Positions 454-17,909 of a stretch of DNA of 32,000 nucleotides are shown here, in pieces. The stretch spans positions 6,166 through 38,165 of the forward strand of contig JANRLS010000270.1 of NCBI GenBank assembly GCA_033762315.1, written 5' to 3'. Numbering within the stretch: position 1 is the stretch's first letter; the number at the start of each line of letters is the position of its first letter. The stretch comes from Pirellulaceae bacterium (GTDB taxonomy: Bacteria > Planctomycetota > Planctomycetia > Pirellulales > Pirellulaceae). The notes beneath the pieces are model-generated. The model was not told the DNA's origin, made no database searches, and saw nothing but the letters and a program-made list of their open reading frames with translations. Position numbers and translations under genes: made by a program.

Positions 454-1134
454 ATGCTTCGTGCCGATGGTCAGCAGGTTCTGGTCCTCTCGCCTCATCC
501 CGACGACGAAACCTTCGGCTGCGGGGGAACTTTGCGGCTGCTGGCGAGCGCGGGAGCCGAGATCGACGTGCTCTACATGACTCGGGGAGAGCTGGGAGTC
601 GATGCGCCGGAAAGTTCGACCCCCGCCAGCCGCGAGCGACTGGCTACCCTGCGCAGCACCGAAGCGCATGCCGCCTGCCAGCTCCTCGGCGCTCGGGAGG
701 TAAATTTTCTCGCCGGTCGCGATGGCCAATTGTGCGAGCAGCCGGAACTGGCGACCGACATCGCCGCGCAGCTTGGTCGGCATGGCTATTCGCGCGTCTT
801 TTGCCCCTGGAGCGAAGAATCGCACCCCGACCACCGTGCCACCTGCCACTTGCTGAAGTGGGCGCTGGGGGGGTTTTCGGGAACGCTCGATGTCTGGCTG
901 TACGAAGTTTGGACTCCGCTCCGGCCAGCGGTGTATGTCCCCATCGACGCCACGATCGAGGCCAAGCTGGCCGCGGCTCAGTGCCACCAAAGCCAGCTCG
1001 CCTGTCTCGACTATGTCAGCGGCTTTCGCGGTCTCGCCGCTTATCGGGCGCTCGCCTGCGCGGGGGCGAAATTCGCCGAGGCTTTCCAAACGTGCGACGC
1101 GCGGCGGTTCGTGGCGGGGAATGGCCATGCCTGA
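454..1134 (+). CDS. PIG-L/LmbE family N-acetylglucosaminyl deacetylase
   Basis: ORF track 382..1134. The VLVLSPHPDDETFGCGGTL opening and the later HPDH motif (EESHPDHRATCHLL) are PIG-L family hallmarks. ATG 454 (MLRADGQQVLVL) gives the usual short N-terminus; 382 is an alternative start. Confidence 0.85.
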   Translation: MLRADGQQVLVLSPHPDDETFGCGGTLRLLASAGAEIDVLYMTRGELGVDAPESSTPASRERLATLRSTEAHAACQLLGAREVNFLAGRDGQLCEQPELATDIAAQLGRHGYSRVFCPWSEESHPDHRATCHLLKWALGGFSGTLDVWLYEVWTPLRPAVYVPIDATIEAKLAAAQCHQSQLACLDYVSGFRGLAAYRALACAGAKFAEAFQTCDARRFVAGNGHA

Positions 1135-3945: not shown

Positions 3946-6150
3946 GTGCAAACTCCCTCCTGCATTGAGAATCGCTCGCTGGCGGCCGCCCGGCTGGGCC
4001 GCACCGCGCAGATCGGCTTTGGTTTTTTTCGCCGGCACTTGTGGATCGTGCCGCTCCTCATGGCGGCGATGATTGGCGTCGCGGGGTTCTGGATTCGCCT
4101 CTCGGTCGAAGCGGCCGCCAAGCACGAAGTGGCGAACATCCTGCAAACGATCCTCGCCGCCGATGTGAAGGCCCTCGATATCTGGATGGAAAATCACATC
4201 GCCCAGGTGCAGACCATCGCCAACCAGCCCCAACTGCAAAAACTGGCCATCGAGCTGGCCCGCGAAGTGAAAGGGGCGACCGATCCGACGAGCGCGGCAA
4301 TCGCATCCTCCTTGCGGCCCGAGATCGATGCCCTGCTGCGGCCCGACATGGTCGCCCGCCGCTACATCGGCTTCGTGCTGATTGATACGAGCGGCCTGGT
4401 GCTGGCGAGTTCGCATGTCGAATTGGTCGGCACCACGCCGCCGCCGCCGTATGACGAACTGATTCGCCGCGTGCTGGCGGCGGGGGCGACGGTGACGCGG
4501 CCGGTCCCCAGCAAAGTGCTGCTGCGGGACGAAACGGGGGAGCTGAAGGCGGGGGTGCCGACAATGTTCGCCGCCGCGACGCTGCGCGATCAGACCGGCG
4601 AGCCGATTGGCGTTCTGGCGCTCCGAATTCGACCGGAGGTGGAGTTCACCGAGATTTTGCAAGTCGCCGCGACCGGGGCGACCGGCGAAACCTATGCCTT
4701 CGATAAGGAAGGGCGAATCCTTTCCGAAAGCCGCTTTACAAGCGAGTTGATTCGCGCCGGCCTCTTGCCCGACCAGCCGGGAGTGCGCTCGACGCTCAAT
4801 CTGACGTTGAAGGATCCGGGGGTGAACATGGTGCAGGGGGGGCATCGCGCTCCGCCGCGCGGCAGCCAGCCCTTCACGCAGATGGTGGCGAGCGGCATTC
4901 GGGAGGAAGCGGGGATCAATGTCGATGGCTTTCGCGATTATCGCGGCGTTCCCGTCGTCGCCGCGTGGCAGTGGCTGCCGGCCTACAACTTTGGCGTGGG
5001 AACGCAAATCGACGTGGCCGAAGCGTTTCAGCCCCTGTACATCATGCGGCGGGCATTTTGGGGGCTGTTTGGCCTGCTCGCGACGGCGGGAGTGCTGGTG
5101 CTCGCCTTCACGGTGATTACCGCCCGGCTGCAGGCGGCAGCCCACTCGGCGACCTTGGCGGCGAAGGAGCTAGGGCAATATCGCTTGGAGGAAAAGCTGG
5201 GCGAAGGGGGGATGGGGGTTGTTTATCGGGGGCAACACAAGCTGCTGCGGCGGCCCACGGCGATCAAGCTGCTGCATCCCGAAAAGACGACCGATGCCGC
5301 CATCGCCCGCTTCGAGCGCGAAGTGCAGCTCACCTGTCAACTGAATCATCCGAATACGATCGCGATTTTCGATTACGGCCGCACCCCCGACGGCATCTTT
5401 TTCTATGCGATGGAGTATCTCGACGGCCTGAACCTGGAAACGCTCGTCAAGCGGTTTGGCCACCAGCCGGAAGGGCGCGTGATTCACATCCTGCGGCAAC
5501 TCTGCGGCTCGCTGGCCGAGGCGCACGAAATTGGCCTCGTGCATCGCGACATCAAGCCCGCCAACCTGGTGCTCAATCGCCGCGGCGGCATTGGAGATGT
5601 GCTCAAGGTGCTCGATTTTGGCCTCGTCAAAGCCAACGACGCGACCAAAGAGGCGGCCCTGACGGCGGCGAATACGATCATCGGCACGCCGCACTATATG
5701 TCCCCCGAAGCGGTTGAGGCGTCGGACACGGTCGATGCCCGCAGCGACCTTTATGCGGTGGCGGCGGTCGGCTATTTTTTGCTGACCGGCGGGCCGCCGT
5801 TTGAAGGAGGCTCGATCATGGAGATTTGCCTCGCCCAGATCAACACGCCGCCGACTCCCCCATCGAGCCGCGGGGCCATCGTTTCACCCGAATTGGATGC
5901 GATCATCCTCAAGGGGCTCGCCAAAAAGCGGGACAATCGCTTCGCCTCGGCCCGGGAATTCGCCGCCGCCCTGGCGGCCTGTCCCACCGCAGGCAGCTGG
6001 ACCGCCGAGCAGGCCGACGCCTGGTGGAACGAACTGTCCACGACGGCGAATCCCCCCTCGGCAACCGTAACCGCAGAAGTCCACCAGGTGCCCACGGTGA
6101 CGGTCGCCAGCAACGCGGCAACAATCATCCACCCGGCGAATCACTCCTAA
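3946..6150 (+). CDS. Transmembrane Ser/Thr protein kinase with extracytoplasmic Cache-like sensor region
   Basis: ORF 3946..6150, GTG start 6 nt after the GNAT stop. TM1 is LWIVPLLMAAMIGVAGFWI, followed by an extracytoplasmic region of about 320 aa and TM2 FWGLFGLLATAGVLVLAFTVI. Hanks kinase motifs follow: GEGGMGVVY, AIKLL, HRDIKPANLVL, DFGLVK, GTPHYMSPE. Confidence 0.9.
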   Translation: MQTPSCIENRSLAAARLGRTAQIGFGFFRRHLWIVPLLMAAMIGVAGFWIRLSVEAAAKHEVANILQTILAADVKALDIWMENHIAQVQTIANQPQLQKLAIELAREVKGATDPTSAAIASSLRPEIDALLRPDMVARRYIGFVLIDTSGLVLASSHVELVGTTPPPPYDELIRRVLAAGATVTRPVPSKVLLRDETGELKAGVPTMFAAATLRDQTGEPIGVLALRIRPEVEFTEILQVAATGATGETYAFDKEGRILSESRFTSELIRAGLLPDQPGVRSTLNLTLKDPGVNMVQGGHRAPPRGSQPFTQMVASGIREEAGINVDGFRDYRGVPVVAAWQWLPAYNFGVGTQIDVAEAFQPLYIMRRAFWGLFGLLATAGVLVLAFTVITARLQAAAHSATLAAKELGQYRLEEKLGEGGMGVVYRGQHKLLRRPTAIKLLHPEKTTDAAIARFEREVQLTCQLNHPNTIAIFDYGRTPDGIFFYAMEYLDGLNLETLVKRFGHQPEGRVIHILRQLCGSLAEAHEIGLVHRDIKPANLVLNRRGGIGDVLKVLDFGLVKANDATKEAALTAANTIIGTPHYMSPEAVEASDTVDARSDLYAVAAVGYFLLTGGPPFEGGSIMEICLAQINTPPTPPSSRGAIVSPELDAIILKGLAKKRDNRFASAREFAAALAACPTAGSWTAEQADAWWNELSTTANPPSATVTAEVHQVPTVTVASNAATIIHPANHS

Positions 6151-6566
6151 GTCGCTGTCTGTAAAGGACTTGCAGCGCCATCTTTGGTCGCTGAAATAAT
6201 TTGCAGGAATCTCCGCGAACCTTTTGCACGGCATTCCGTCTAAACGTGCGATCCGTCCGAGCAGGGGTCTTTTGTCGGCCAGTCGCCTCGCACGCGATTG
6301 CCGAACCCCCCATCTGGCGGTAAGATTGCAATATCGAGTGGCCAGTTTGCCGATGGAATAATTGGGTCGCACTGTGTCTCTAAGAGACAAGGACTCTAAG
6401 TAGAGGGAGCGCCCTTTGTGGCGTTCCGGTTCGGTCAGCATTCCTTTGCGACCTGCCGGGACGACACTCAGGGGGAACCCTCTCGCCATCGGCAAGTGGT
6501 CCGATTTGTGTTTCGAGCTTCACGGTTCTCTCGCGCTGTGCGCAAGGCCGCACAGGGGAGTTTGTC

Positions 6567-6842
6567 ATGCGTAGCACGCTTAACGCCATCGCCAATCTGA
6601 CGACCACCGTCATTGCGAACGTCCTCGTTCGCACGGTCGTAGCCGGCGCCAGCGTGCTGCGCGGACCCGCCCCGCACGCCTTGCGCCTCTATGCCGCATC
6701 ACCGTCGAAGCCGTGGTCCGAGTTTGGCGGCAAACAAAAGTCGCCTTGCCAAGGGACCATGCCGGGCGGTGAAAGTCACTGCCACCGGGATGAATCCCGG
6801 TGCCGGCGTCCGCGAACAGGGTGCGGGCGAGGAAGAAGCTAA
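6567..6842 (+). CDS. Candidate small ORF (91 aa) in the kinase-sigma spacer; hypothetical, weakly supported
   Basis: ATG 6567 is preceded by GGGGAG (6555-6560) with a 6-nt spacer. About 80 percent of the first ~55 codons end in G/C, as in real genes here, but this bias decays in the last third. The N-terminus MRSTLNAIANLTTTVIANVLVRTVVAGASVL is hydrophobic. No recognisable family; it may be a gene remnant or non-coding. Confidence 0.3.
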   Translation: MRSTLNAIANLTTTVIANVLVRTVVAGASVLRGPAPHALRLYAASPSKPWSEFGGKQKSPCQGTMPGGESHCHRDESRCRRPRTGCGRGRS

Positions 6843-7050
6843 TCGGTCGGCCGTTAGGCCAGCCTTAGCCCACAACTCGCCAGCCCAATAGCGGACGCCA
6901 GCCGAGCGGAATCGCGGTCATCCACCGCGAAAATCCCTCGCCGCTGCCGGTCGCTGTTTTCTCCCCCTTCCCTCGCGAACGCCGTCCTGGCCACTTGTGG
7001 CCCAGGCCCGGTGGTTCGCGTGTTTTGATCGCTCTTCCGGAGATTCCGCC

Positions 7051-7623
7051 ATGAACTTCGCACTCGAAAACACCGACAAGACCGAGCTGATCGACCTCGT
7101 CGTTCGCGCTCAGCGCGGCGACCGTGCCGCGTTCGGCCGCCTGTTCGAGCGGTTCGAGCGGCACGTCATGGCGGTCGCGGTGCGCCGGCTCGGCGATTTT
7201 GCCGAGGCGCAGGAGCTGTGCCAGGACGTGTTCATCCAGGCGATGGCCAAGATCGGCCAGCTCCGCGAGCCGGCGGCGTTTGCCGGCTGGCTGCGCTCGA
7301 TCACCGGACGGATGGCGATCAACCGGATCGTCCGCCGGCCGGCCGATCGGGCCCTGGAGCAGGAGGCGCTCGATGCCGCGTGCGTCGAAACCGACACCCC
7401 GCTCAGCGAGGTGCTGGCCGACGAGCGGCAGGATCACGTCCGGGCGGGTCTGGCTCGGCTGGGCCGGCTCGATCGCGAGACGCTCGAGGCGTTTTACGTC
7501 CGCGGGCAGTCGCTGATCGAAATGGCCGGCGAGTTCGACGCCCCGGTCGGCACCATCAAGCGCCGGCTGCACGTCGCCCGCAAGCGGCTCGCCAAGCACG
7601 TCGAAGAGTTCGCCGCCGTGTGA
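7051..7623 (+). CDS. ECF-type RNA polymerase sigma-70 family factor
   Basis: ORF 6997..7623; ATG 7051 is preceded by GGAG (7039-7042). Region 2: FGRLFERFERHVMAVAVRRLGDFAEAQELCQDVFIQA and FAGWLRSITGRMAINRI. Region 4 HTH: LDRETLEAFYVRGQSLIEMAGEFDAPVGTIKRRLHVARKRLA. About 190 aa with no region 3. Confidence 0.9.
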   Translation: MNFALENTDKTELIDLVVRAQRGDRAAFGRLFERFERHVMAVAVRRLGDFAEAQELCQDVFIQAMAKIGQLREPAAFAGWLRSITGRMAINRIVRRPADRALEQEALDAACVETDTPLSEVLADERQDHVRAGLARLGRLDRETLEAFYVRGQSLIEMAGEFDAPVGTIKRRLHVARKRLAKHVEEFAAV

Positions 7624-7629
7624 TACTGA

Positions 7630-7763
7630 CCCGCAGCGTCAGCCAAGGTCTGTGTTACACAAGCCCGCAGCGCCAGCAAGGGTCCGTGTTCCACTAACCC
7701 GCAGCGTAAGCAAGGGCCGTGTCACACTCTCCCGCCGCGTCAGCCAGGGCCTAACGATCGTCC
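7630..7763. repeat. Tandem array of four ~34-bp REP-like units (family 1) plus a partial fifth
   Basis: Units start at 7630, 7664, 7698 and 7731. They read cccgcagcgtcagccaaggtctgtgttacacaag / cccgcagcgccagcaagggtccgtgttccactaa / cccgcagcgtaagcaagggccgtgtcacactct / cccgccgcgtcagccagggcctaacgatcgt. The shared core is cccgcagcg-N-agc-aaggg followed by a gtgt..acac mini-palindrome. The array begins 7 nt after the sigma gene stop. Confidence 0.85.
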
Positions 7764-7810
7764 CACCAGCAAGGGCGCGGGTTGGCAACCCGCCGCTCCG
7801 CTAGTAACCA

Positions 7811-7854
7811 GGGGAGCGCGAGGATTCCCCATCCTCGCGCTCCCCAATTTTTTT
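7811..7854 (+). terminator. Canonical rho-independent terminator (plus strand)
   Basis: Perfect 15-bp stem ggggagcgcgaggat / atcctcgcgctcccc with loop tcccc, followed by aa and a T7 run (7848-7854). It is oriented to terminate the sigma-factor transcript after the repeat array. Confidence 0.8.
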
Positions 7855-7905
7855 CGCCGTGAACGGACGAATCGCGGGTGATTGGCATCGCCCAACGGAA
7901 GAGAA

Positions 7906-7960
7906 CCCTTGCTGGCGCTGCGGGCTTGTGTTGGCGCGCTTGTGTTGGCGCGCTTGTGTT
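7906..7960. repeat. Inverted copy of the REP family 1 core, followed by a 14-bp tandem duplication
   Basis: 7906-7931 (cccttgctggcgctgcgggcttgtgt) is the perfect reverse complement of 7657-7682 and is identical to 22825-22850. It is followed by ggcgcgcttgtgtt twice (7933-7946 and 7947-7960). Confidence 0.85.
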
Positions 7961-8038
7961 GCGACGAAAGCGCGTAGGGAGTGCTCCTCCCACCAATCTT
8001 GTTTTCGGCGGGCGGATCCCCACCCTACGGTCAACGAT

Positions 8039-9388
8039 TTATCGTCCCCGTCGCCGCGTGGCGACGAGCGCGGGCTCGACGAACCGGGCGATGAGATGCT
8101 CGTTGGCCGCCAGATTGATGAGCATTCGACTGGCGAGGACATTGCCGCGGCCGAGAATGTCGAACCGCTGGCGATGGTCGGCGGCATAGGTGACGAGCGG
8201 CCCGCGCGGCTCCAGTTGCCAGGCGGGATGGCGATAGCCGCGGAGCACGGTGCCGGAATCGACCATCCAGCTGCCGGCGGCGAAAGTCAGCTCGGTCGGT
8301 TCAGGGGGACCGGCTTCGTCCAAGAGGCGGGCGACGGCGGGCAGAAGTCCGGTCATCGGCAAGCGGCGGCCGCAAGGAAGGGCCATTTCGCGGCATAAAT
8401 AGGCGACGCCGCTCCCCTCGGCATAGATGCGTCCGCCGCCAGCGGCAAAGCTGCGGAGCGATTGCTGCAGGCAATGATTGCCGGCAATCGCCTCGGGCCG
8501 GCGCTCGGGATGGCCACAGCCGAAATAGACGACATCGGCATCGTCGGGCAAAGCGCCGCTGCGAAGCGGCGAAAAGTCGCACAGCTCGGCCCCCGATTGC
8601 TCCAGCAGATCGAGCGTATCGGGAAAATAGCCGCAGCAATCTTCGTCGTAGGCCAAGGCGATGCGGAGCGGGCGATGCGGCAGTTCGAGCAACAGGTCGT
8701 CGGCCGGCAGCGGCGGCAGCGGCCAGCGTTCGGCCAGGGCGAGCAGCTTCTCGAGCCGCAGGTTGGGGCGCAAGCGTTTGCCGAGCGCCAGGCACAGTTC
8801 GGGCGAGGGATCGCGCCCCGCCGGCAGCGTTTCGCAGAGGGTGCGCAGCGCGGGGGCTTCGTCGAGCCAGCCGAGCACGGGGACTTTGGCGACCGCCTCC
8901 AACGTGACTTGCCAGCGGGCGGCATGATCGCGGTCGTGGGCGTTATCGAGCAAGATGCCATCCAGCCGGCGAGGTAATCCCGGCAGCTGGCAGGGGCCAA
9001 GTTGCGCGAGATCGACAATCGCGAGCCGCGGCAGATCGAGCCAATCGCACAAGGTATCGAGGCTGCTGCCGGGTGGGGCGTCGATGGCAGTGTTGGCGGG
9101 GGTAGCGAGGTCGAATTCCCCGGTCACGAGGGAGATTTCGGCATGTTCGGACGACCGCAAAATCGTGCGCAGGCAGCTGGAGCGGCTCATTGCCCAACTG
9201 TCGAGATGACGCGTGCCGGAGCCGATGAGCGAGCGCGTCGGGTCGTGCGGGGCGAGCCACGAGCACGATTGCAACAGGGCGGGGGTGCGTTCGGCGGCGT
9301 GCAAGGCCGCGAGCAATCCCCAGACTAGCGGCTCCGTCTGCGTGGCGGGTTGCACGGTTCCCAGCGCCAGTCGCGACAAATGCCTCAT
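8039..9388 (-). CDS. CbiA/CobB (cobyrinic acid a,c-diamide synthase)-like protein with degenerate catalytic motifs
   Basis: ORF 8039..9388. The C-terminal half aligns by eye with the CobB/CobQ-type amidotransferase domain: RIALAYDEDCCGYFPDTLDLLEQSGAELCDFSPL, DVVYFGCGHPE, GGRIYAEGSGVAYL, the LRGYRHPAW position and the LINLAANEHLIARFV ending. The N-terminal half follows the CbiA ATPase layout but lacks the GxGKT P-loop (LALGTVQPATQTEP). Confidence 0.75.
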   Translation of the reverse strand: MRHLSRLALGTVQPATQTEPLVWGLLAALHAAERTPALLQSCSWLAPHDPTRSLIGSGTRHLDSWAMSRSSCLRTILRSSEHAEISLVTGEFDLATPANTAIDAPPGSSLDTLCDWLDLPRLAIVDLAQLGPCQLPGLPRRLDGILLDNAHDRDHAARWQVTLEAVAKVPVLGWLDEAPALRTLCETLPAGRDPSPELCLALGKRLRPNLRLEKLLALAERWPLPPLPADDLLLELPHRPLRIALAYDEDCCGYFPDTLDLLEQSGAELCDFSPLRSGALPDDADVVYFGCGHPERRPEAIAGNHCLQQSLRSFAAGGGRIYAEGSGVAYLCREMALPCGRRLPMTGLLPAVARLLDEAGPPEPTELTFAAGSWMVDSGTVLRGYRHPAWQLEPRGPLVTYAADHRQRFDILGRGNVLASRMLINLAANEHLIARFVEPALVATRRRGR

Positions 9389-9591: not shown

Positions 9592-10779
9592 CTAAGGTTT
9601 CCGACGCTCAAACTCCAGCGGCTCGTCGGCTCGCGGGTCGGCGATGCGAATCGCCACATCCCCGGCGAGCAAATCATCAATCACCTGACCCACGACTTCG
9701 GCCCGCCACCCACGCGCCAAAAGGGGGACCTCGCCGTCGTCAAAGCCCCCCAAATCGAGCCGATAGGCGATCAAATCGCGCACATCCTGCGCCGTGCCGG
9801 TCAGGCTCGCCGCCACTTGGGCCTTGCGGCAGATGCTGCCGAGGGCGGTGCTGAGGAACTGCCCCAGCAGATTGAGCTGCGGCCGCGAGCTCTTGCGCCC
9901 CAGGCGGGGCAATTCTCGGTCGGGCAAGGCGAGGGCGCGGTCGATGGCCTCACTTAGCTTAGGCAAAAACCGCTGCAAATCGCCCCGCTCCATGCCGCGC
10001 AGGGCCCGAATCCGCTTCGGATCGCTCGTTTGCCGCTTGGCGAGCTCAATCAGAAGGTCGTCGCGCAAAATCCGCCGCGGTGGCTGGTCGCGGCGCTGCG
10101 CCTCGCCATCACGCCAGTTCCACAATTCGCGGACAATCGCCAGGCTGCGCGGATTCAGTCCCGCCAGCCCCCCCATCCGCGGCCACCGCTCGCTTGCCTC
10201 CACCTCGGCCAGCTCGCGCTGCCAGGTGGTCAGCTCCTCTTCGAGCCAGCCGAGCCGGCCCAGCTGAGACAAGCGGCGATGCAAGGCATTGCGGATATCG
10301 GTCAAATCGGCGACATCTTGCAAGGCATATTCGAGCTGCCGGGCCGACAAGGGGCGCTTCCGCCAATCGGTGCGGGTCTCGTCTTTCGACAGCGATTTCC
10401 CCAAGAGCCGCCCGGCGAGAGTGCCATACGACGCGGGAAACTCCATCCCAATCAGCCCGGCGGCAATTTGCACGTCGAACCAGCTTTGCGGCCGGCGGCC
10501 GGCATGGCGCAGGCAAAAGCGAAATTCCTCGCGGCCGGCATGAACGAGCGTCTCCCGCCCCGGGCCCGTCAGCAATTCCCACAGCGGGGCCAAATTCTCG
10601 AACGCCAGCGGATCGACAATCGCCAGGTGCTCGCCAGCCGCCAGTTGCACCAGGCAAAGCTCAGGCTGATAGCTGTCTTCGGAGACAAACTCCGTGTCGA
10701 AGGCGACAATCGGCGCGGTGGCGATGGTGTCGCAGAAATCGCGCAGGTGCTGTTCGGACGTGATGTGTTCGTAGCGCAC
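9592..10779 (-). CDS. rnd: Ribonuclease D (DEDD 3'-5' exonuclease plus HRDC)
   Basis: ORF 9592..10914. Exonuclease motifs: VAFDTEFVSEDSYQPELCLVQL, LVHAGREEFRF, YALQDVADL. HRDC-like helical repeats follow. GTG 10779 (VRYEHITSEQHLRDF) gives about 395 aa, similar to known RNase D. The longer 10914 start falls inside a REP-like element, so I prefer 10779; the start remains uncertain. Confidence 0.85.
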   Translation of the reverse strand: MRYEHITSEQHLRDFCDTIATAPIVAFDTEFVSEDSYQPELCLVQLAAGEHLAIVDPLAFENLAPLWELLTGPGRETLVHAGREEFRFCLRHAGRRPQSWFDVQIAAGLIGMEFPASYGTLAGRLLGKSLSKDETRTDWRKRPLSARQLEYALQDVADLTDIRNALHRRLSQLGRLGWLEEELTTWQRELAEVEASERWPRMGGLAGLNPRSLAIVRELWNWRDGEAQRRDQPPRRILRDDLLIELAKRQTSDPKRIRALRGMERGDLQRFLPKLSEAIDRALALPDRELPRLGRKSSRPQLNLLGQFLSTALGSICRKAQVAASLTGTAQDVRDLIAYRLDLGGFDDGEVPLLARGWRAEVVGQVIDDLLAGDVAIRIADPRADEPLEFERRKP

Positions 10780-10913
10780 GAAAAACGCAGGCTGGGGGAC
10801 GCGACCCACGGATGGGAGGCGAGCACCGGCGGGGCAAGGTGGGAAATCTCCGCACCCGCATCGTAGCGGGCCGCCCTTCCCTTGGCCAGCCGCATGGCGC
10901 GACCGGCGATTCA

Positions 10914-10947
10914 CTGGGTTTTGCTGACGCTAAACGCCAGCCAACCA
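10914..10947. repeat. REP-like hairpin element, family 2 (copy B)
   Basis: ctgggttttgctgacgctaaacgccagccaacca. Its reverse complement matches 24519-24552 at 32 of 34 positions. It has an internal stem, gttttgc/gcaaaac type, flanked by gctgg/ccagc. Confidence 0.8.
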
Positions 10948-11105
10948 ATTCTGCAGTCCTCCTGCCCAAACCCGCCTGATTAGGGTGGACGCTAGCGGCC
11001 ACAAACTCGCCGTAATCGGCAAGGTCGGCAAGATCGTTCAAGTCCAAACCGTTTTCTCCCGAATATTTCCAAGACGAATCGATCTCTCGACATGCGAGCC
11101 GCGGC

Positions 11106-14100
11106 ATGATGCCCCCTACCAGCACGCCCAACAATACTGCCGAGCTGCCGCCGTCTCCGGCGGGAGAAGACGAACGACTGCTTTGGCTGATTCACCGGGC
11201 GAGCCATGCCGGCCGCGTGCTGCGGCGACTTCTGGCCGAACGGGCCGCCGAAGTGGGCCTGAGCGACGGCGAGCTGCTGGTCATCTGGCTATGCGAAGCG
11301 GGGGCGGGGCGGGCGCAAGTCGAGCTCGCGGCCGAGATTGGCGTTTCCCCCGCGCAGATGAGCGCCACGGTCGAACGCTTGCGGCAGCGCGAAATGATCG
11401 AGGTGCAGCGCTCGCCGGTCGATCGCCGAAGGCAGGTTTGGAAAGCCGCCCCGGCGGGCAGGCAAGTCCTGGCCACTGTTCGCGCGGGACTAATTTCCCT
11501 GACGAACCGACTCGACGACGAACTTCCCGCCGCCGAGCAAGGCTCGCTGACCACGCTGTGCGTTTCGCTCACCGCGGCGCTGCTGCGGCTGGATGGCGCC
11601 GGGCTCGCCGGCGCGGCGCGGGCCGCCGTGCTACTGGTGTTGGTGGCCGCGATGGCGTTTTCGTCGGGCTGCGCGCGTTCCTGGTATCGCCGCCAGGCCG
11701 ACTGGGATGCCTACAACCTGATTCGCGAAAAGGCGAATCACCCCCACTGGGCCAATGCGAACTACACCATCGCCCTCGACCCGCGCTCGCGCATGTACGA
11801 CCCGTACTGCGCCGATTGCCCCCCGCTGCCGCCGGACGATCCGACCGCGCACCAGTTCATGCACTGCGTCGATCATCACCGGGGGTGGCCCTTCTGGCAC
11901 AACCACGGCGATACGCCGAACGTCGAGAACCCCGCCTGGCCCGCCTACATCGAATTCGACGAGCAGGGGGTGATGATCGTCGGTGCCGACGATGCGGTGC
12001 GCCTCGGCCTCTTGCACTCGCGCAACTATCAGCAAGAGCAGGAAGACCTGTATCTCTCGGCCCTCGACGTCAGCTTCGAGCGGTTCCGCTTTCAGACGCA
12101 GGGCTTTGCCGGCTATCAGACGTTCTTCACCGCCGATGGCAACCTGCGCAATGCCGGGGGGGAATCTTCAAGCATTTTGCAAGCCTCGACCTTCTCAACC
12201 GGCGCGCGGCCGAATGGCTGGTCGCTGCAAAAGCTGACGACGACCGGCGGCTCGATCGTCGTCGGCTTCGCCAATTCGCTCGTCTGGCAATTCTCGGGGC
12301 CCGACAGCTACACCCCCAACACGCTGATCGATTTCACTGTTTTGCAGCCCCTTCTTCGCAATGCCTGCCGCGATCGGGTGCTGGAGCGCCTGACGCGAGC
12401 CGAGCGGCAGTTGCTCTACAATGTCCGCGCGATGGAGCAATATCGCCAAGGGTTCTATGTGAACATCATGACCGGCCGCGACATCGGCCAAGGAGTGCAG
12501 CGGCAAGGTGGCGTCTTCGGAGCGGGGCTCGAAGGCTTCAGCGGCGTCGGCGGCGGCGGCTTTGGCCGGATCACCACCACGGCCGGCGGCGGCGGTTCCG
12601 CGAGCGGCGGCGGCGGAGCCGGAGGCGGCGGCGCGGGGGGCTATATCGGCCTGTTGCAAAATGCCCAGGTCATTCGCAATCAGGAAGACAATGTCGAGCG
12701 GCTGCGGCGCAATCTGGAGCGGCTCGAAGCCTTTCGCGACGAGCTGAAGCTGCGCAAGGACATTACCATCGGCAGCTTCAACAACATCGTGCGGCAAGAG
12801 CTGCAGGTCGCCCAGGCCCGGCAAGCGCTGTTCAATGCCGAAAGCACGCTGCTCAACACGAATAACCAATATCAGCAGACGCTCGATGCCTTCAAAATCA
12901 CCCTCGGCCTGCCGCCACAGCTCTGTTTCCGCGTGCAAGACAAAATGCTCGACGAATTCGAGCTGATCGAGCCACAGTCCGAGGTGCTGCAGCGACAGGT
13001 GGACCAAATCGTGCGCGATTTCGGCGCGGTCCCGCTGCGGATTTCGCAGCATGTTCGCTCGGTCGAGCCCGATCCCAATGCTCCCGCCGCCACCCGCAAC
13101 GCCCTCGATTGGTATCCGGAACTGGAGCAAGACATCGTCGAGCTGAAAAAGCGGCTGCAATCGATTCGCGGCGTGCGCGAGCGGCTGCTGGCCGATTTGC
13201 TGCCGCAACTGGATGGCGACCTGGCCCGTTTGGAAGCCGCCTTGCCCCGCCGCAAGGAGTCGTTGGCCAAGCTCCGCGAGCGGATTGTCGCCTCGCAAAG
13301 CGAGCCATGTCCGCTGCTCCCCGTCACCGACGTGAATGCCGACATCTTTCGCCCGGACCGGCTCGATCAATCGCTGGCCAATGCCCGGTCCGAGGTCGAG
13401 CGGCTCGCCGCCAAAATCAAGGAGCAATACGAGCAGCACATGAGCGAACGGGCCGCCAAGCTCGACGAAATTCTCGCTCAAGGTAAAACGTGGACTCCCG
13501 AAAAGCTCTACCTGGAGCTGTACGACGGGGTGCTCGTGCCCCGCGCGGCGGCCGGCGGCATTCGGGACATTCTCAACGAGATTCCCAGCGATATTCTCGC
13601 CCTGCAACTGGTGCAGGCCCAGGCACGCAGCGAGAGCATCGAGCTGGCCGCCGTTGACATTCGGGCCGAAAAGGCGCTCGACGTGGCCCGCAAATATCGC
13701 CGCGACTGGATGAACGCCCGCGCCGGCCTCGTCGATTCGTGGCGGCTGATCCAGTTCAATGCCGACCAGCTGCAATCGACAGTCAACATTCTCTTCAGCG
13801 GCGACATCAGCAACGTCGGCGACAACCCGTTCAATCTCAACAGCAACACCGGCCGCCTGCGGACCGGCTTTCAGTTCGACGCCCCGATCACCCGCCGCTC
13901 GGAGCGGAATGTCTATCGCCAGGCGCTGATCGAATATCAGCAGGCCCGGCGGAGCTTCTATGCCTTTGAAGATCAGGTGGCCGCCGCGCTGCGGTCCGAA
14001 CTGCGCACCATCTACACCAACCAAATCAACTTCGAGCTGCAACGCCAGGCGGTGCTGATCGCCGCCCAGCAGATCGAATTCAACGGCTATTTGCAGACCG

Positions 14101-14537
14101 AGCAGGAGCAAAGCCAGACCGCCGGCGTCACCGCGGCTCGCGATTCGGTGTCGGCCCTCAGCGACTTGCTGCAAGCCCAAAACAACTTTCTCACGATCTG
14201 GACCAACTACGAATCGCTCCGGCGGGCCCTCGATTTCGACCTGGGCACCCTGCAGCTCGATGGCGAAGGGCTGTGGATCGATCCGGGCAAGATTAGCGAG
14301 GACTATGGCGAATTCGATCCTTGGATTTGGCGCACGGGCGACGGGGTTCTGCCGCTGCCGCAGCCCGACGAAGTGGTCCCCGCCGACTTGCTGCCGCACG
14401 GCCACCACGGCCATGCCGAACCGCTGCCGATGACCGAGCCGCAAGCGATGGAATCGCCCGAGGCCCCACTGACTCCGCAAATCTATGGCGAATTGCCGCT
14501 GCTGCCGACGGTGCCGGCGGGACCAGCCGAGCGATAA
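11106..14537 (+). CDS. Single in-frame ORF: MarR-type winged-helix domain, lipoprotein-like signal/TM segment and TolC-family outer-membrane channel-like protein
   Basis: ORF 11106..14537 has no in-frame stop. Residues ~25-155 are MarR-like (LSDGELLVIWL, VELAAEIGVSPAQMSATVERLRQREMIEVQRSPVDRRRQVW). Residues ~172-189, RAAVLLVLVAAMAFSSGC, form a lipobox-like segment (Cys codon 11670-11672). The remainder has two OEP/TolC-like halves (VGADDAVRLGLLHSRNYQQEQEDLYLSALDVSFERFRF and ALDVARKYRRDWMNARAGLVDSWRLIQFNADQL). Possible internal starts are GTG 11628 and CTG 11589. Confidence 0.8.
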   Translation: MMPPTSTPNNTAELPPSPAGEDERLLWLIHRASHAGRVLRRLLAERAAEVGLSDGELLVIWLCEAGAGRAQVELAAEIGVSPAQMSATVERLRQREMIEVQRSPVDRRRQVWKAAPAGRQVLATVRAGLISLTNRLDDELPAAEQGSLTTLCVSLTAALLRLDGAGLAGAARAAVLLVLVAAMAFSSGCARSWYRRQADWDAYNLIREKANHPHWANANYTIALDPRSRMYDPYCADCPPLPPDDPTAHQFMHCVDHHRGWPFWHNHGDTPNVENPAWPAYIEFDEQGVMIVGADDAVRLGLLHSRNYQQEQEDLYLSALDVSFERFRFQTQGFAGYQTFFTADGNLRNAGGESSSILQASTFSTGARPNGWSLQKLTTTGGSIVVGFANSLVWQFSGPDSYTPNTLIDFTVLQPLLRNACRDRVLERLTRAERQLLYNVRAMEQYRQGFYVNIMTGRDIGQGVQRQGGVFGAGLEGFSGVGGGGFGRITTTAGGGGSASGGGGAGGGGAGGYIGLLQNAQVIRNQEDNVERLRRNLERLEAFRDELKLRKDITIGSFNNIVRQELQVAQARQALFNAESTLLNTNNQYQQTLDAFKITLGLPPQLCFRVQDKMLDEFELIEPQSEVLQRQVDQIVRDFGAVPLRISQHVRSVEPDPNAPAATRNALDWYPELEQDIVELKKRLQSIRGVRERLLADLLPQLDGDLARLEAALPRRKESLAKLRERIVASQSEPCPLLPVTDVNADIFRPDRLDQSLANARSEVERLAAKIKEQYEQHMSERAAKLDEILAQGKTWTPEKLYLELYDGVLVPRAAAGGIRDILNEIPSDILALQLVQAQARSESIELAAVDIRAEKALDVARKYRRDWMNARAGLVDSWRLIQFNADQLQSTVNILFSGDISNVGDNPFNLNSNTGRLRTGFQFDAPITRRSERNVYRQALIEYQQARRSFYAFEDQVAAALRSELRTIYTNQINFELQRQAVLIAAQQIEFNGYLQTEQEQSQTAGVTAARDSVSALSDLLQAQNNFLTIWTNYESLRRALDFDLGTLQLDGEGLWIDPGKISEDYGEFDPWIWRTGDGVLPLPQPDEVVPADLLPHGHHGHAEPLPMTEPQAMESPEAPLTPQIYGELPLLPTVPAGPAER
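12543..12641 (+). repeat. GGC-rich low-complexity tract encoding a poly-Gly insert inside the TolC-like region
   Basis: Encodes GVGGGGFGRITTTAGGGGSASGGGGAGGGGAGG. It contains runs of ggcggcggcggc at about 12546-12560, 12584-12595 and 12606-12616. Confidence 0.8.
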
Positions 14538-14597: not shown

Positions 14598-15017
14598 ATG
14601 TTTTACGGCTTCATCAAGCATCTTTCCGAGCGTGGGTTTGGGTTCATTGGCCAAGAAGGGGGGCTGGATGTCTATTTTCATGCCTCGATCATGCCCCCGG
14701 AGCAATTCGCGAACCTGCGCCCCGATCAGCCGGTGATGTTTGAATATGCGAAGCGCGATCCGGACGAAAAGCCCGGCGAGAAGCGCGGGCCCCGGGCGGC
14801 GAAGGTGCAGCTCATCGACAAGATGCCCGGCGGCGTGTTGCCTCCGCCCCCGCGGCAAATGCTCGCCCAACGGCATCCCAAGGCAATCGGCCGCAAGGCA
14901 ACCTGGAAGCGGCGAATCAGCGTCCCCGCGCTCGAAAAACAGTCCCCGCCCCAACCTGGCAACACCAAGTCTGGCGACACTGAGCTTGGTTCCGCCGAAT
15001 CCTCTCCCGCCGAATAA
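14598..15017 (+). CDS. Cold-shock domain protein with a long C-terminal Pro/basic tail
   Basis: ORF 14598..15017. CSD RNP motifs are RGFGFI and DVYFHAS in the first ~70 aa. A tail of about 70 aa follows (PGGVLPPPPRQMLAQRHPKAIGRKATWKRRIS...). Confidence 0.9.
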   Translation: MFYGFIKHLSERGFGFIGQEGGLDVYFHASIMPPEQFANLRPDQPVMFEYAKRDPDEKPGEKRGPRAAKVQLIDKMPGGVLPPPPRQMLAQRHPKAIGRKATWKRRISVPALEKQSPPQPGNTKSGDTELGSAESSPAE

Positions 15018-15031
15018 CACGGAGCAACCCC

Positions 15032-15673
15032 TTGGCCCACTGCCGCTTGTCGCTTGCGCTGGGGATATTCGCCAGTTGGCTGCTGGTAGCGTTGTGCGCC
15101 TTGCCCGCGCTTTCAGCCGCCGAGCCGCAACTGCTCGGCCGGACACGCGACCAATGGCTGGCGGACCTCGATCCCAATGTCGATCGCCGGAAGCGAACCC
15201 TCGCCGCCTGGGCTTTGTCCGAAATGGCGGTCCAGCAGGCCGAGGGACCCGATAAGCTGATCTGGCTCAACGAGTTGCTCCTCTTGTGCGAGGATGAAAG
15301 CGGCACGATTCGCTATTGGGCGCTGGCCGGCGTGCGGCGATTCGCCCTCAAGCTCCCCGCCGACCATGCCGGCCGGGCGACGGCGGTGACTCTCTTTTCC
15401 GATGCCCTCATCGACTCGTCAGTGGCCTGCCGGATCGTCGCGGCCGAAGGGCTGACGGTGCTGGGCGCGGCCGATAAGGGGCTGCCGGTGCTCGTTGGCA
15501 CGCTCGCCAATCCCCAAGAGGCAGCCCGCATCCAGGCGGTCAGCGCCCTCGAAAGACTGGGGGACACCGCCCAGCCCGCCGAACAAGCCCTGCAAGCGGC
15601 GACCAAAGACAGTAGCGAATATGTCAAACGCATCTCCAGCCGCGCGCTGGAAAAGCTGCAACCCCCGCGGTGA
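15032..15673 (+). CDS. Secreted HEAT-repeat protein
   Basis: ORF 15032..15673. TTG start with GGAG 7 nt upstream (15021-15024). Signal peptide LALGIFASWLLVALCALPALSAAEP. Repeated HEAT/PBS-lyase-like units: RTLAAWALSEM, IRYWALAGVRRF, VACRIVAAEGLTVLG, ARIQAVSALERLGD, YVKRISSRALEKL. Confidence 0.7.
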   Translation: MAHCRLSLALGIFASWLLVALCALPALSAAEPQLLGRTRDQWLADLDPNVDRRKRTLAAWALSEMAVQQAEGPDKLIWLNELLLLCEDESGTIRYWALAGVRRFALKLPADHAGRATAVTLFSDALIDSSVACRIVAAEGLTVLGAADKGLPVLVGTLANPQEAARIQAVSALERLGDTAQPAEQALQAATKDSSEYVKRISSRALEKLQPPR

Positions 15674-15677
15674 ATTC

Positions 15678-17909
15678 ATGCGCCTGTCGCTCGTCTCGCT
15701 GGTTTCGCTTTTTGGGAGCGTCTTGCTCGCTTTTCCAACGGCCGCCGACGAGCCGGCGGCTCCGTCGGTGAAGGAACTGGCGGCACGGGTCAAGGCTTCC
15801 ATCGTCGTCATTTCGCATGGCGGCCGCGAAGGGGGCCAGCAAGGGCTGGGGACCGGCTTTATCATCGATCAGGCGGGCCTCGTGGCGACGAACCTGCATG
15901 TCATCGGCGAGGCGCGGCCAATCACCGTGCAAACCGCCGCGGGAAAATCGCTGAAAGTGACGGCAGTCGAAGCCTCGGACCGGGCGATGGACCTTGCGAT
16001 TGTCCGGGTCGAAACGCTCGACAACCTCCCCGCTTTGGAACTGGCCGATTCCGAGGCCATCGACCAAGGGGAGCCGGTCGTCGTGATGGGAAACCCGCAG
16101 GGGCTCAAGCACAGCGTGGTGAGCGGCGTCGTCTCGGGCCGGCGCGAATTCGACGGCCGCAAAATGATTCAGCTCGCCATGCCGGTTGAACCCGGCAATA
16201 GCGGCGGGCCGGTGATCGATGCCCAGGGGCGCGTGCTGGGGATCGTCACGATGAAGTCGCTCGTCACCGACAATCTCGGTTTCGCGGTCGAGATCAACGC
16301 CTTGAAGACGTTGCTCGCCAGGCCCAATCCCGTGCCCATCGACCGCTGGCTGACGATTGGCACGGTCGATCTAGCCCAGTGGGAACCGCTGTTTGGTGCG
16401 CGCTGGCAGCAGCGAGCGGGGCGCATTCTGGCGGGGGGCTCGGGCTCGGGCTTTGGCGGGCGAGCGCTGCTGCTCGCGCGCGAAGCGCCGCCGGAGCTCC
16501 CTTATGAGATCGCCGTGACCGTGAAGCTGGACGACGAATCGGGAGCGGCCGGCCTCGCCTTTCATGCCGATGGGGACGAAAAGCATTACGGCTTCTATCC
16601 CTCGGCCGGCAAACTGCGGCTCAGCCGGTTCGATGGGCCGGACGTCTTCAGCTGGCGGGTGCTGATCGAGCGCCCTTCGTCCGCTTATTTGCCCGGCGAG
16701 TGGAATCGGCTCAAGGTGCGGGTCGAGAAGGGGAAGCTGTCGTGCTATGTCAACGAAGAGCTGGCCTTCGCCTCGACCGACGATGTTTTCACTTCCGGGC
16801 GAATCGGCCTCGCCAAGTTTCGGACGACCGAAGCGCAGTTCCGCCAGTTCGCCGTCGGCAAGGAATTGCCCAGCCACAAGCCGAGCCCGGAGGCAATCGC
16901 CAAAATTTCGGCCCAGATCGAAAAGCTCCCTGCGTGGGCCGAAACGCTCCCTCCCGCCGCGGCCTCACTCGCCGGTGAACGGCCGCAAGACGCGCAAGCG
17001 GTGCTGCTAACGCGGGCCGCGGAGCTGGAATCGCGCGCTCGCGAGCTGAAGCTGCTTGCTGGCGATGTGCGGCTGGCGAGCGTGCTGGCCGAGTTCGAGA
17101 AGTTGGCGGGGCCGATGGTCAAGGAGATCGACCTGTTGCGAGCGGCCCTGACCATTGCCGCACTCGACGAAGAGGACTTGGATGTCGCGGCGTATGTGAA
17201 GCATGTCGAGCGGATGGCTGCCGAAGTGCAAAAGAAACTGCCGCCGCAGGCCGGTGCTGGTGAAAAGCTCGCGACCCTCAACGATTATCTTTTCAAGGGG
17301 AACGGCTTCCACGGCAGCCGGTCGGATTATTACCACCGGGCAAATAGCTATCTTAATCGCGTGATCGACGACCGCGAAGGGCTGCCCATTACCCTCTCGG
17401 TGCTCTACCTGGAACTGGCCCGCCGGCTAGGGGTGAAGCTCGAAGGGGTTGGCCTGCCGGGGCATTTTGTGGTGCGGCACGTGCCGGAAAGGGGAGAGCC
17501 GCAATTGATCGATGTCTTCGAGGGGGGCGTTCCGCTGTCGCGCGAGGCGGCAGAGAAGAAGGTCCTCGAGTTTACCGGCGAGGCGGCAACGGACGCCCAT
17601 TTCAAAGCCACCGGCGAGAGGCAGATTTTGCTGCGGATGTTGCAGAATTTGCTTGGCGTGGCCCAAGGGGGCAAAGCGCCCGACCGCGAGGCGATTGGCC
17701 GCTATACAAGCGCAATGCTGGTGCTCGATCCGGCGCTCGTTCGCGAACGGGGTTTGCGGGCCGTGGTTCGCTGGGAAACCGGCCGCCGCGATGCCGCCGT
17801 GGCGGATATCGACGCCATCCTCGCCGCGAAACCCGACGGCATCGACCTGGAAGAGTTGCGGAACATGCGCGACTATTTCCAGGCGAACAAGCCGCCGGCG
17901 CTGAAATAG
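15678..17909 (+). CDS. Secreted three-module protein: trypsin-like S1C serine protease, DUF1080/ConA-like beta-sandwich and SirB1-like transglutaminase-fold/TPR domain
   Basis: C-terminal part of ORF 15495..17909. ATG 15678 lies 4 nt after the HEAT gene stop. Signal peptide MRLSLVSLVSLFGSVLLAFPTAAD. Catalytic triad context: TNLHVIG, DLAIVRV, GNSGGPVID. The middle module is WQQRAGRILAGG...GEWNRLKVRVEKGKLSCYVNEE...GRIGLAKF. The C-terminal module, ANSYLNRVIDDREGLPITLSVLYLELARRLGVKLEGVGLPGHFVVRH, is typical of the SirB1/UPF0162 family. Confidence 0.85.
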   Translation: MRLSLVSLVSLFGSVLLAFPTAADEPAAPSVKELAARVKASIVVISHGGREGGQQGLGTGFIIDQAGLVATNLHVIGEARPITVQTAAGKSLKVTAVEASDRAMDLAIVRVETLDNLPALELADSEAIDQGEPVVVMGNPQGLKHSVVSGVVSGRREFDGRKMIQLAMPVEPGNSGGPVIDAQGRVLGIVTMKSLVTDNLGFAVEINALKTLLARPNPVPIDRWLTIGTVDLAQWEPLFGARWQQRAGRILAGGSGSGFGGRALLLAREAPPELPYEIAVTVKLDDESGAAGLAFHADGDEKHYGFYPSAGKLRLSRFDGPDVFSWRVLIERPSSAYLPGEWNRLKVRVEKGKLSCYVNEELAFASTDDVFTSGRIGLAKFRTTEAQFRQFAVGKELPSHKPSPEAIAKISAQIEKLPAWAETLPPAAASLAGERPQDAQAVLLTRAAELESRARELKLLAGDVRLASVLAEFEKLAGPMVKEIDLLRAALTIAALDEEDLDVAAYVKHVERMAAEVQKKLPPQAGAGEKLATLNDYLFKGNGFHGSRSDYYHRANSYLNRVIDDREGLPITLSVLYLELARRLGVKLEGVGLPGHFVVRHVPERGEPQLIDVFEGGVPLSREAAEKKVLEFTGEAATDAHFKATGERQILLRMLQNLLGVAQGGKAPDREAIGRYTSAMLVLDPALVRERGLRAVVRWETGRRDAAVADIDAILAAKPDGIDLEELRNMRDYFQANKPPALK

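Follow-up and report, generated by a model that had tools for sequence, protein, structure and literature searches.

A MarR-family regulator gene fused in frame to the gene of a TolC-like lipoprotein in a Pirellulaceae bacterium

We analysed a stretch of 32,000 nucleotides (nt) from a Pirellulaceae bacterium (contig JANRLS010000270.1, positions 6,166 to 38,165 of the forward strand; the whole stretch is called the window hereafter), which carries a single long open reading frame (ORF) in which a MarR-family DNA-binding domain runs into a lipoprotein resembling the outer-membrane factors (OMFs), the channel proteins that include TolC. The first-pass annotation of this DNA had reported an uninterrupted frame of 1143 codons and the frame is indeed present on the forward strand, without internal stop or frameshift, in a window whose G+C fraction (~0.62-0.68) shows no compositional break. 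The comparison with related loci given below identifies the ORF as a derived in-frame fusion of marR and an OMF lipoprotein gene, two genes that are normally separate yet translationally coupled in Pirellulales. The parts of the ORF are listed here with the evidence on which they rest, including structure prediction with AlphaFold2 (AF2) and its per-residue confidence (predicted local distance difference test, pLDDT), and the ratio of nonsynonymous to synonymous substitution rates (dN/dS).

11106..14537, plus strand: fused ORF, consisting of MarR, internal signal peptide/lipobox and OMF-like lipoprotein (1143 codons plus stop)
11106..11585, plus strand: MarR-family winged-helix domain, residues 1-160, with wing motif DRRRQVW (Pfam, AF2, Foldseek)
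11256-11432, plus strand: Pfam core of the MarR domain, residues 51-109 (Pfam)
11586..11618, plus strand: junction linker, residues 161-171, RLDGAGLAGAA (DNA alignment with L001, the locus of the closest homologue)
11619..11669, plus strand: internal signal sequence, R172 and a 16-residue hydrophobic stretch ending in the lipobox (AAVLLVLVAAMAFSSG) (sequence, AF2, homologue alignment)
11628..11654, plus strand: in-frame canonical start codons GTG 11628, GTG 11637, TTG 11640, GTG 11643 and ATG 11652 (codon reading)
11670..11672, plus strand: codon TGC of Cys189, the lipobox cysteine and putative site of acylation by Lgt and cleavage by LspA (invariance)
11673..14534, plus strand: mature OMF (TolC-like) lipoprotein, residues 190-1143 (AF2, Foldseek, dN/dS)
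12510..12629, plus strand: Gly-rich, predicted disordered insert (GGVFGAGLEGFSGVGGGGFGRITTTAGGGGSASGGGGAGGGGAGG), residues 469-508, between two long helices (pLDDT <50)
13752..14216, plus strand: Pfam OEP-matching stretch, residues 883-1037, second OMF repeat (Pfam, AF2)
14244..14534, plus strand: Pro-rich, poorly conserved, predicted disordered C-terminal tail, residues 1047-1143, ~95 residues (alignment, AF2)

The N-terminal MarR winged helix that had been recognised earlier was confirmed at the level of both sequence and fold. Residues 51-109 matched two Pfam families above threshold (MarR_2 with 35.1 bits, cutoff 27, and MarR with 27.3 bits, cutoff 24.6), and the NCBIfam equivalogs yielded only sub-threshold matches of the MarR type (best 47 bits against a cutoff of 200), so that no specific subfamily could be assigned. 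In the AF2 model of the ORF, which was based on an alignment of 54 sequences (mean pLDDT 71.3, predicted template-modelling score 0.65), helices at residues 21-94, a wing at 98-114 and further helices at 116-163 together make up a MarR fold with flanking dimerisation helices. A Foldseek search with this model matched residues 21-163 to the crystal structures of MarR, RovA, ST1710 and HpaR (template-modelling (TM) scores of 0.55-0.61, normalised by target). The product of the separate marR gene at L001 is 63% identical to the window protein over residues 22-159 of the latter.

The MarR part is joined to the channel part by what the first-pass annotation had taken for a lipoprotein signal with a lipobox at residues ~172-189, and R172, the hydrophobic stretch behind it and the invariant Cys189 all speak for that assignment. 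The segment reads R-AAVLLVLVAAMAFSSG-C, with SSG directly preceding the cysteine, and AF2 placed one helix (residues 169-186) over the hydrophobic stretch. Cys189 is invariant in 54 of 54 aligned homologues; in ~110 unfused homologues the residue aligned with it is the cleavage-site cysteine of an N-terminal signal peptide, and these proteins begin 15-40 residues ahead of it. The signal in the window is not N-terminal, as it starts at residue ~172 of the sole plausibly started ORF; it does have the basic residue (R172), the 16-residue h-region and the invariant lipobox cysteine of a lipoprotein.

The remaining ~950 residues had been called TolC/OEP-like. The window protein gave a single sub-threshold match to Pfam OEP (16.8 bits against a cutoff of 22, residues 883-1037) instead of two repeats, and the same model was matched individually by 26 of 44 family members (best E 1.5e-8). 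A family profile searched against PDB sequences retrieved coiled-coil noise only and no OMF. The structural comparison was clearer: the top 39 PDB matches of the AF2 model in Foldseek were all OMF channels (E 5e-7 to 4e-3, probability ~1, ~480 aligned columns), including TolC, ST50, VceC, OprM, OprN, CusC, CmeC, MtrE, SilC and TOprJ, with the MarR structures ranking next. The TM-scores of the OMF matches were low (0.2-0.35 by target), as expected for the monomer model of a protein of twice the size of TolC. The channel part is laid out as a highly conserved N-terminal region (190-330), beta-hairpins at 339-388 and 893-924 (both with low pLDDT), long helices at 414-456, 512-600, 673-795, 927-1003 and 1008-1046, an extra helical region (~608-850) and a second repeat (854-1046); the OEP-matching stretch covers the hairpin at 893-924 and the 77-residue helix at 927-1003. 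On the strength of the model we conclude that about half of the ~950 residues would constitute an OMF core and the remainder family-specific additions, so that the earlier description holds with this qualification.

We found at least 575 stretches matching the channel family in species-representative genomes, all from Pirellulales-type planctomycetes, and 224 cluster representatives at E <1e-30; judged from these matches the family appears to be restricted to that group. Most members are annotated as 'hypothetical', and the fused forms were given just the automatic annotation 'MarR family transcriptional regulator', which masks an outer-membrane protein. A protein search yielded more than 1100 homologues; among the best 120, ~110 lacked MarR and were 930-1100 residues long, and ~10 had MarR in the same polypeptide. 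We fetched 80 loci from species-representative genomes and 67 from metagenomes and classified every junction: a separate marR lay directly upstream of the channel gene in 50, no marR was present within 4 kb in 62-71 (of 151 loci), and five, including the window, were fused. Insensitivity of tblastn as the cause of 55 'no MarR' loci was ruled out, as a hidden Markov model (HMM) built from the detected MarR partners found none within 4 kb upstream of them. The marR partner is conserved in one sub-clade of the channel family.

Where the two genes are separate they are very tightly arranged. The start of the lipoprotein gene overlaps the marR stop ([AG]TGA) in 27 of the 50 loci and lies 2-5 nt past the stop in most others; the overlap measures 13 nt in Anatilimnocola floriformis. 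The start codon is ATG in 43 and GTG in 7 of these loci, and a Shine-Dalgarno (SD)-like motif (mostly GGAGG or AGGAG) is found 6-10 nt upstream of it, inside the 3' end of marR, in 48 of 50. The C-terminus of MarR reads ...AA*, and in 23 of 25 loci the lipoprotein gene lies in a frame offset by 2. By this arrangement marR and the lipoprotein gene are, in the relatives, a conserved and translationally coupled two-gene unit. The closest homologue of the channel part (P0001, 88% identical; locus L001, on a 253-kb contig) is itself unfused, with a separate gene for a 171-residue MarR (5489-6004) overlapping the lipoprotein gene (6001-8838) by ATGA. The orthologues that the first-pass annotation had wanted aligned, L001 included, thus have a stop and an overlapping start between MarR and channel at this very place; a stop between 11560 and 11630, which had been proposed as the mark of an artefact, does occur in them, yet it points to a derived fusion.

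The DNA alignment of the window with L001 shows how the two genes were joined. Around 74 nt (a 6-nt gap and a 68-nt gap) are missing from the window at the junction, and with them the MarR tail, the TGA stop, the SD, the ATG and the signal-peptide n-region; the sequence around this loss is otherwise diverged between the two loci. The linker, 8-11 residues long, thereby takes the place of what in the unfused relatives is a MarR tail of 25-45 residues, the stop and start codons, the SD and the n-region, and the order in the window is last MarR helix, linker, R172, intact hydrophobic core and lipobox. In L001 a perfect hairpin-forming palindrome (CCCTCTCCCAAGGGGAGAGGG, read as ...PSPKGRG...) is located at ~6030-6070 in the lipoprotein n-region, inside the stretch that is missing from the window. 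From its sequence it looks like a small insertion within the coding region, similar to repetitive extragenic palindromic (REP) elements.

Fusions of this kind are rare and recurrent. Eleven of the 312 proteins retrieved were fused, and the architecture must be considered rare because none of 143 new cluster representatives (at 50% identity) had it. In a neighbour-joining tree of the mature part the fused members were scattered among unfused ones: the window (sister to unfused L001), L015/L095, P0047, P0066/P0068, P0062, P0064 and P0058/P0057/P0071/P0075, with P0131 fused in yet another lineage. The fused loci stem from independent JGI, Logan and NCBI assemblies. Counted conservatively there were at least four independent fusion events, and probably six to eight. 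A conserved SD-stop-start sequence (CAAGGAGGCGGCCTAACCATGA) is common to the unfused members of the P0057 sub-clade, from which it follows that the separate state is ancestral there and the fusions derived. We also considered a single, deep, all-fused clade spanning P0047 to P0075, which was ruled out by unfused members interleaved in the tree and by the metagenome loci. Likewise, the unfused L131 (87% identical to P0057) does not nest in a fused trio, as its MarR groups with those of the unfused L010 and L090; its high identity to P0057 reflects the short and highly conserved stretch that is available.

The junctions of the fused loci indicate whether the lipoprotein could still be translated on its own. 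The first-pass annotation had offered as one explanation a nested arrangement in which the lipoprotein is made from an internal start (GTG 11628 or CTG 11589), and both codons are present and in frame, as are the other GTG, TTG and ATG codons up to 11652. All five canonical candidates, though, sit within the hydrophobic core, downstream of R172 and without an SD, and initiation at 11628-11652 would yield signal peptides of 7-15 residues lacking a basic n-region. The window junction (linker 11586-11618 included) has no in-frame canonical start codon ahead of R172, and the 130 nt before Cys189 hold no SD-like motif; CTG 11589, which has no SD either, would be a non-canonical start of a kind that is very rare in bacteria. 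The junction codons were read in the eight distinct fused loci with DNA, a set that does not contain P0047, P0064, P0066 and P0071. The position of the old initiator is still in frame as ATG in L015 and as GTG in L003, L095 and L151, in each case followed by a basic residue, and dual products are conceivable at these four loci; it has become GTC in L152 and is absent in L153, L154 and the window, so that a canonical start ahead of the basic residue is missing in four of the eight. Retention of the old initiator as internal start is therefore ruled out as a general rule. Among the eight, L003 alone has an SD-like motif (GGAG, weak, with a suboptimal spacing of 11 nt), compared with 48 of the 50 unfused loci (Fisher exact p = 9e-7). 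With no usable start in L152, L153, L154 and the window, and no SD-like motif before any window candidate, we consider production of the lipoprotein from a nested internal start unlikely.

The export signals, on the other hand, were retained. In 13 of 13 fused junctions a stretch of 15-17 hydrophobic or small residues separates a K or R from G-C, as in the unfused signal peptides; read from the sequence, this is the geometry of a signal peptide and not that of a permanent anchor of ~20 residues. From the losses of SD and start codon together with these 13 junctions it follows that the fused loci lost the signals for independent initiation yet kept those for export.

Both halves of the fused proteins appear to be maintained. 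Between the window and L001 dN/dS was 0.35 for MarR (dS 1.0) and 0.11 for the channel (dS 0.73). Over all pairs of loci MarR identity scaled with channel identity (r = 0.71), the fused loci having residuals of zero or above, and the window MarR was as close as the L001 MarR to each of six outgroups, which argues that selection on the window MarR has not been relaxed. Three pairs of fused loci whose junctions look homologous could be compared with each other:

L003-L154: dN/dS 0.07 for MarR and 0.09 for the channel (dS 0.7-1.2)
L015-L095: dN/dS 0.28 for MarR and 0.22 for the channel (dS 0.7-0.9)
L151-L152: dN/dS 0.12 for MarR and 0.18 for the channel (dS about 1.5)

If each pair inherited one fusion, both halves have long been maintained while fused. 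This is well supported for L003-L154 and plausible for L015-L095; a single inherited fusion is uncertain for L151-L152, which are separated on the neighbour-joining tree, and for L153.

These comparisons also bear on whether the window fusion is an artefact of assembly or sequencing, or a very recent deleterious deletion that silences proper export of the channel. The junction of the window is unique among the databases searched (a junction-spanning query in two protein databases returned no second copy), its closest relative is unfused, the stretch missing relative to L001 holds a perfect hairpin-forming palindrome, which is a deletable kind of sequence, and the fused lineages are mostly shallow tips. 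Read-through errors do exist in the databases: P0169 (351 amino acids, on a 29.8-kb ENA contig) has the C-terminal half of a MarR that runs into the wrong channel frame (Arg/Ser/Thr-rich nonsense) and later into the correct one, and is a genuine frameshift error or pseudogene at the same junction, a model of how an artefact looks. The window looks different. It does not differ from L001 by an indel of 1-2 nt, its frames join exactly ahead of a basic residue and an intact core and lipobox, the 1143 codons contain neither stop nor frameshift, and both halves are under purifying selection and evolve at normal relative rates. Fusions of the same kind are found in independent assemblies and have lasted through dS of about 1. 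The other long genes of the window are also intact, matching their domains over the full length, and this speaks against an assembly riddled with indels. The suggestion in the first-pass annotation that a stop codon was lost and two genes were joined was therefore correct as far as the joining is concerned; a simple assembly indel does not fit ~74 nt gone, recurrent inherited fusions and no decay, and an artefact or fresh lesion appears improbable to us.

The surroundings of the unit contain the following further features, including a palindrome between the unit and its divergent neighbour.

9592..10914, minus strand: RNase D-like gene (3'-5' exonuclease and HRDC), divergent, upstream of the unit (domain matches)
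10985..11002, no strand assigned: near-palindrome GTGGACGCTAGCGGCCAC, candidate MarR operator, ~105 nt upstream of the start (inverted-repeat search, weak evidence)
14598..15017, plus strand: cold-shock-domain protein, downstream of the unit (domain match)

Apart from the weak palindrome at 10985-11002, the inverted-repeat search near the unit gave nothing beyond chance; the promoter and terminator scans revealed no sigma-70-like promoter at the unit and nothing above chance. The cold-shock-domain protein has 139 amino acids, about twice the usual length, and has a Pro/Lys-rich C-terminal extension of ~70 residues. The channel had been described earlier as an orphan followed by a cold-shock gene, and indeed none of the long ORFs in the 32-kb window was identified as a membrane-fusion protein (adaptor) or as an RND or ABC pump component. 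In E. coli, tolC is also unlinked to the genes of its pumps.

In most Pirellulales loci (~75 fetched), with or without marR, a divergent gene of ~500 amino acids is found directly upstream of the unit (25-60% identity; e.g. L003 4118-5623 and L002 3572-5104, both on the minus strand), encoding a protein with two N-terminal hydrophobic helices, a C-terminal coiled coil and no Pfam family match. The product of this gene may work together with the channel; the gene is missing from the window, where the RNase D-like gene takes its place, and from the genes called around the L001 unit. The channel gene of the P0057-type sub-clade is consistently followed by a gene for a fatty-acid desaturase (PF00487, Lipid_DES; L003 9735-11078), which also lies downstream in the fused L151, L153 and L154, in the unfused L010 and in the contexts of P0064 and P0066; in L003 an MFS transporter and an MMPL protein come next. 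This association gives a hint that the channel of that sub-clade may have a function related to lipids.

Elsewhere in the window we noted an 804-residue protein (15495-17909, plus strand) that combines a trypsin-like peptidase, a 3-keto-disaccharide-hydrolase-like domain, a transglutaminase-like core and a TPR region; the listed start of its ORF overlaps the preceding HEAT-repeat ORF (15032-15673) by ~180 nt and the true start is probably further downstream. Two further genes lie a few kb upstream of the marR-channel unit, both on the plus strand: one for a Ser/Thr protein kinase (3946-6150) whose N-terminal part matches dCache_1 below threshold (34.5 bits, cutoff 45), and one for a sigma factor of the ECF type (6997-7623; Sigma70_r2 and r4_2).

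With the stop, SD, ATG and n-region gone, we infer that the channel of the window can only be made as the C-terminal part of a precursor that starts with MarR. Our best reading, to which we would give an even chance of being right, is that of a genuine fused precursor in which an internal signal peptide exports the channel part and Lgt and LspA process it at Cys189. The retained hydrophobic stretch would act as an internal signal sequence inserted with its N-terminal side in the cytoplasm (N-in), MarR would stay in the cytoplasm, and Sec would translocate the channel part. Lgt would then lipidate Cys189 and LspA cut before it, and the cut would yield the same mature lipoprotein as in the unfused relatives, on its way to the outer membrane. 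MarR would be left on the remnant of the signal peptide at the inner membrane, either tethered or later freed by signal-peptide proteolysis. The unit would thus be a self-contained module of regulator and channel, in which one-to-one production is enforced by fusion and not by translational coupling. It is conceivable, and we propose this tentatively, that the arrangement works as a 'polyprotein' across the membrane, in which each exported channel leaves behind one tethered MarR and the availability of the regulator is stoichiometrically coupled to export. The objection raised in the first-pass annotation, that a cytoplasmic repressor domain and an exported outer-membrane protein are topologically hard to reconcile in one polypeptide, does not hold given N-in insertion, as in ToxR, CadC and other bitopic proteins.

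Several points weigh against this proposal of an exported and cut precursor. That the fused polypeptide is produced, exported and cut is something we infer, and in an incomplete coverage of the literature we found no precedent for LspA cleaving a signal peptide behind a folded domain of 170 residues; the lgt and lspA genes of the organism would lie outside the window. The own junction of the window was absent from every other sample searched, which leaves some room for an assembly error, or for a very recent deleterious deletion that has yet to be purged, at this locus. The post-fusion divergence assumes that L003 and L154 share one fusion event, for which their junctions look homologous, and the MarR of L153 is closest to that of an unfused locus. 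Finally, as the fusions are mostly shallow on the tree, they could be mildly deleterious and short-lived.

The weakest alternative is a permanent one-component regulator of the ToxR/CadC style, uncleaved, with MarR held by a single transmembrane helix and the TolC-like part serving as a periplasmic or envelope-spanning sensor: its predicted topology (a cytoplasmic DNA-binding domain, one hydrophobic helix and a large extracytoplasmic part) fits, and ToxR and CadC do bind DNA while tethered to the membrane (PMC10629549, PMC5430869), but we regard it as very unlikely since the extracytoplasmic family mostly occurs without MarR, always begins with a cleavable lipoprotein signal with invariant cysteine, has a hydrophobic stretch of signal-peptide and not anchor length and a fold that needs trimeric insertion into the outer membrane, and the unfused state is ancestral. 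Of the membrane-anchored MarR regulator proposed in the first-pass annotation, then, the membrane-inserted fusion protein is part of our best reading, and a precursor cut at the lipobox cysteine is likelier than a permanent sensor.

If the fused precursor is indeed processed in this way, the export and maturation of lipoproteins would accept a signal peptide behind a folded domain of ~170 residues, which would be useful to know for export biology and for engineering. The recurrent and selectively maintained fusions of Pirellulales would then speak for a tolerance of Sec, Lgt and LspA towards large N-terminal passenger domains, and a maintained fusion of regulator and lipoprotein that has lost its internal ribosome-binding site would surprise specialists in protein export. 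It would also be the first membrane-tethered MarR-type regulator that we are aware of, and could link the export of an envelope protein directly to the activity of its own regulator. In the literature that we covered, which was incomplete, we found no relevant paper on a membrane-anchored MarR, on an internal lipobox behind a folded domain or on lipoprotein processing in planctomycetes. The analysis also defines a large, uncharacterised and Pirellulales-wide family of double-length TolC-fold lipoproteins.

The unit can be compared with several known systems. In the emrRAB (mprA) operon of E. coli a MarR-type regulator controls efflux genes, and its gene comes first and is transcribed together with them. 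The unfused relatives resemble such operons in having a MarR-family gene directly upstream of an envelope component, with tight translational coupling, but differ in that the sole partner is an OMF, with no pump or adaptor nearby, and in the window the two occupy one reading frame. Many characterised OMFs are lipidated at their N-terminus and a lipobox on an OMF is therefore normal. The window family shares its fold (Foldseek probability 1.0) and, at the family level, the OEP signal with the lipidated OMFs (OprM, CusC, CmeC, MtrE and VceC; NodT-type) and with TolC, and, as in the lipidated OMFs, the lipobox cysteine begins the mature protein. It differs from them in length (~950 against ~450 residues) and in its highly conserved extra N-terminal region and extra helical region, and the Gly-rich insert and the Pro-rich tail of the window protein have no counterpart in the classical OMFs.

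The nearest parallels for the topology are ToxR and CadC, membrane-integrated one-component regulators which make such an arrangement feasible (PMC10629549, PMC5430869). The unprocessed product of the window ORF would resemble them in having a cytoplasmic winged helix, a single hydrophobic segment and a large extracytoplasmic part. Unlike theirs, its DNA-binding domain is of the MarR type and not of the OmpR/PhoB type, its hydrophobic segment is a lipoprotein signal with a lipobox, and its extracytoplasmic part is a protein of channel fold that normally stands alone. With respect to its origin, the window ORF is comparable to Rosetta-stone-type fusions of coupled operon genes, with which it shares the overlapping stop and start, the fixed frame offset and the recurrence; the overlap and fixed offset make an in-frame fusion by a small deletion easy. 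In contrast to such fusions, the two partners belong to different compartments of the cell, so that the fusion would be viable only if the internal signal sequence still works.

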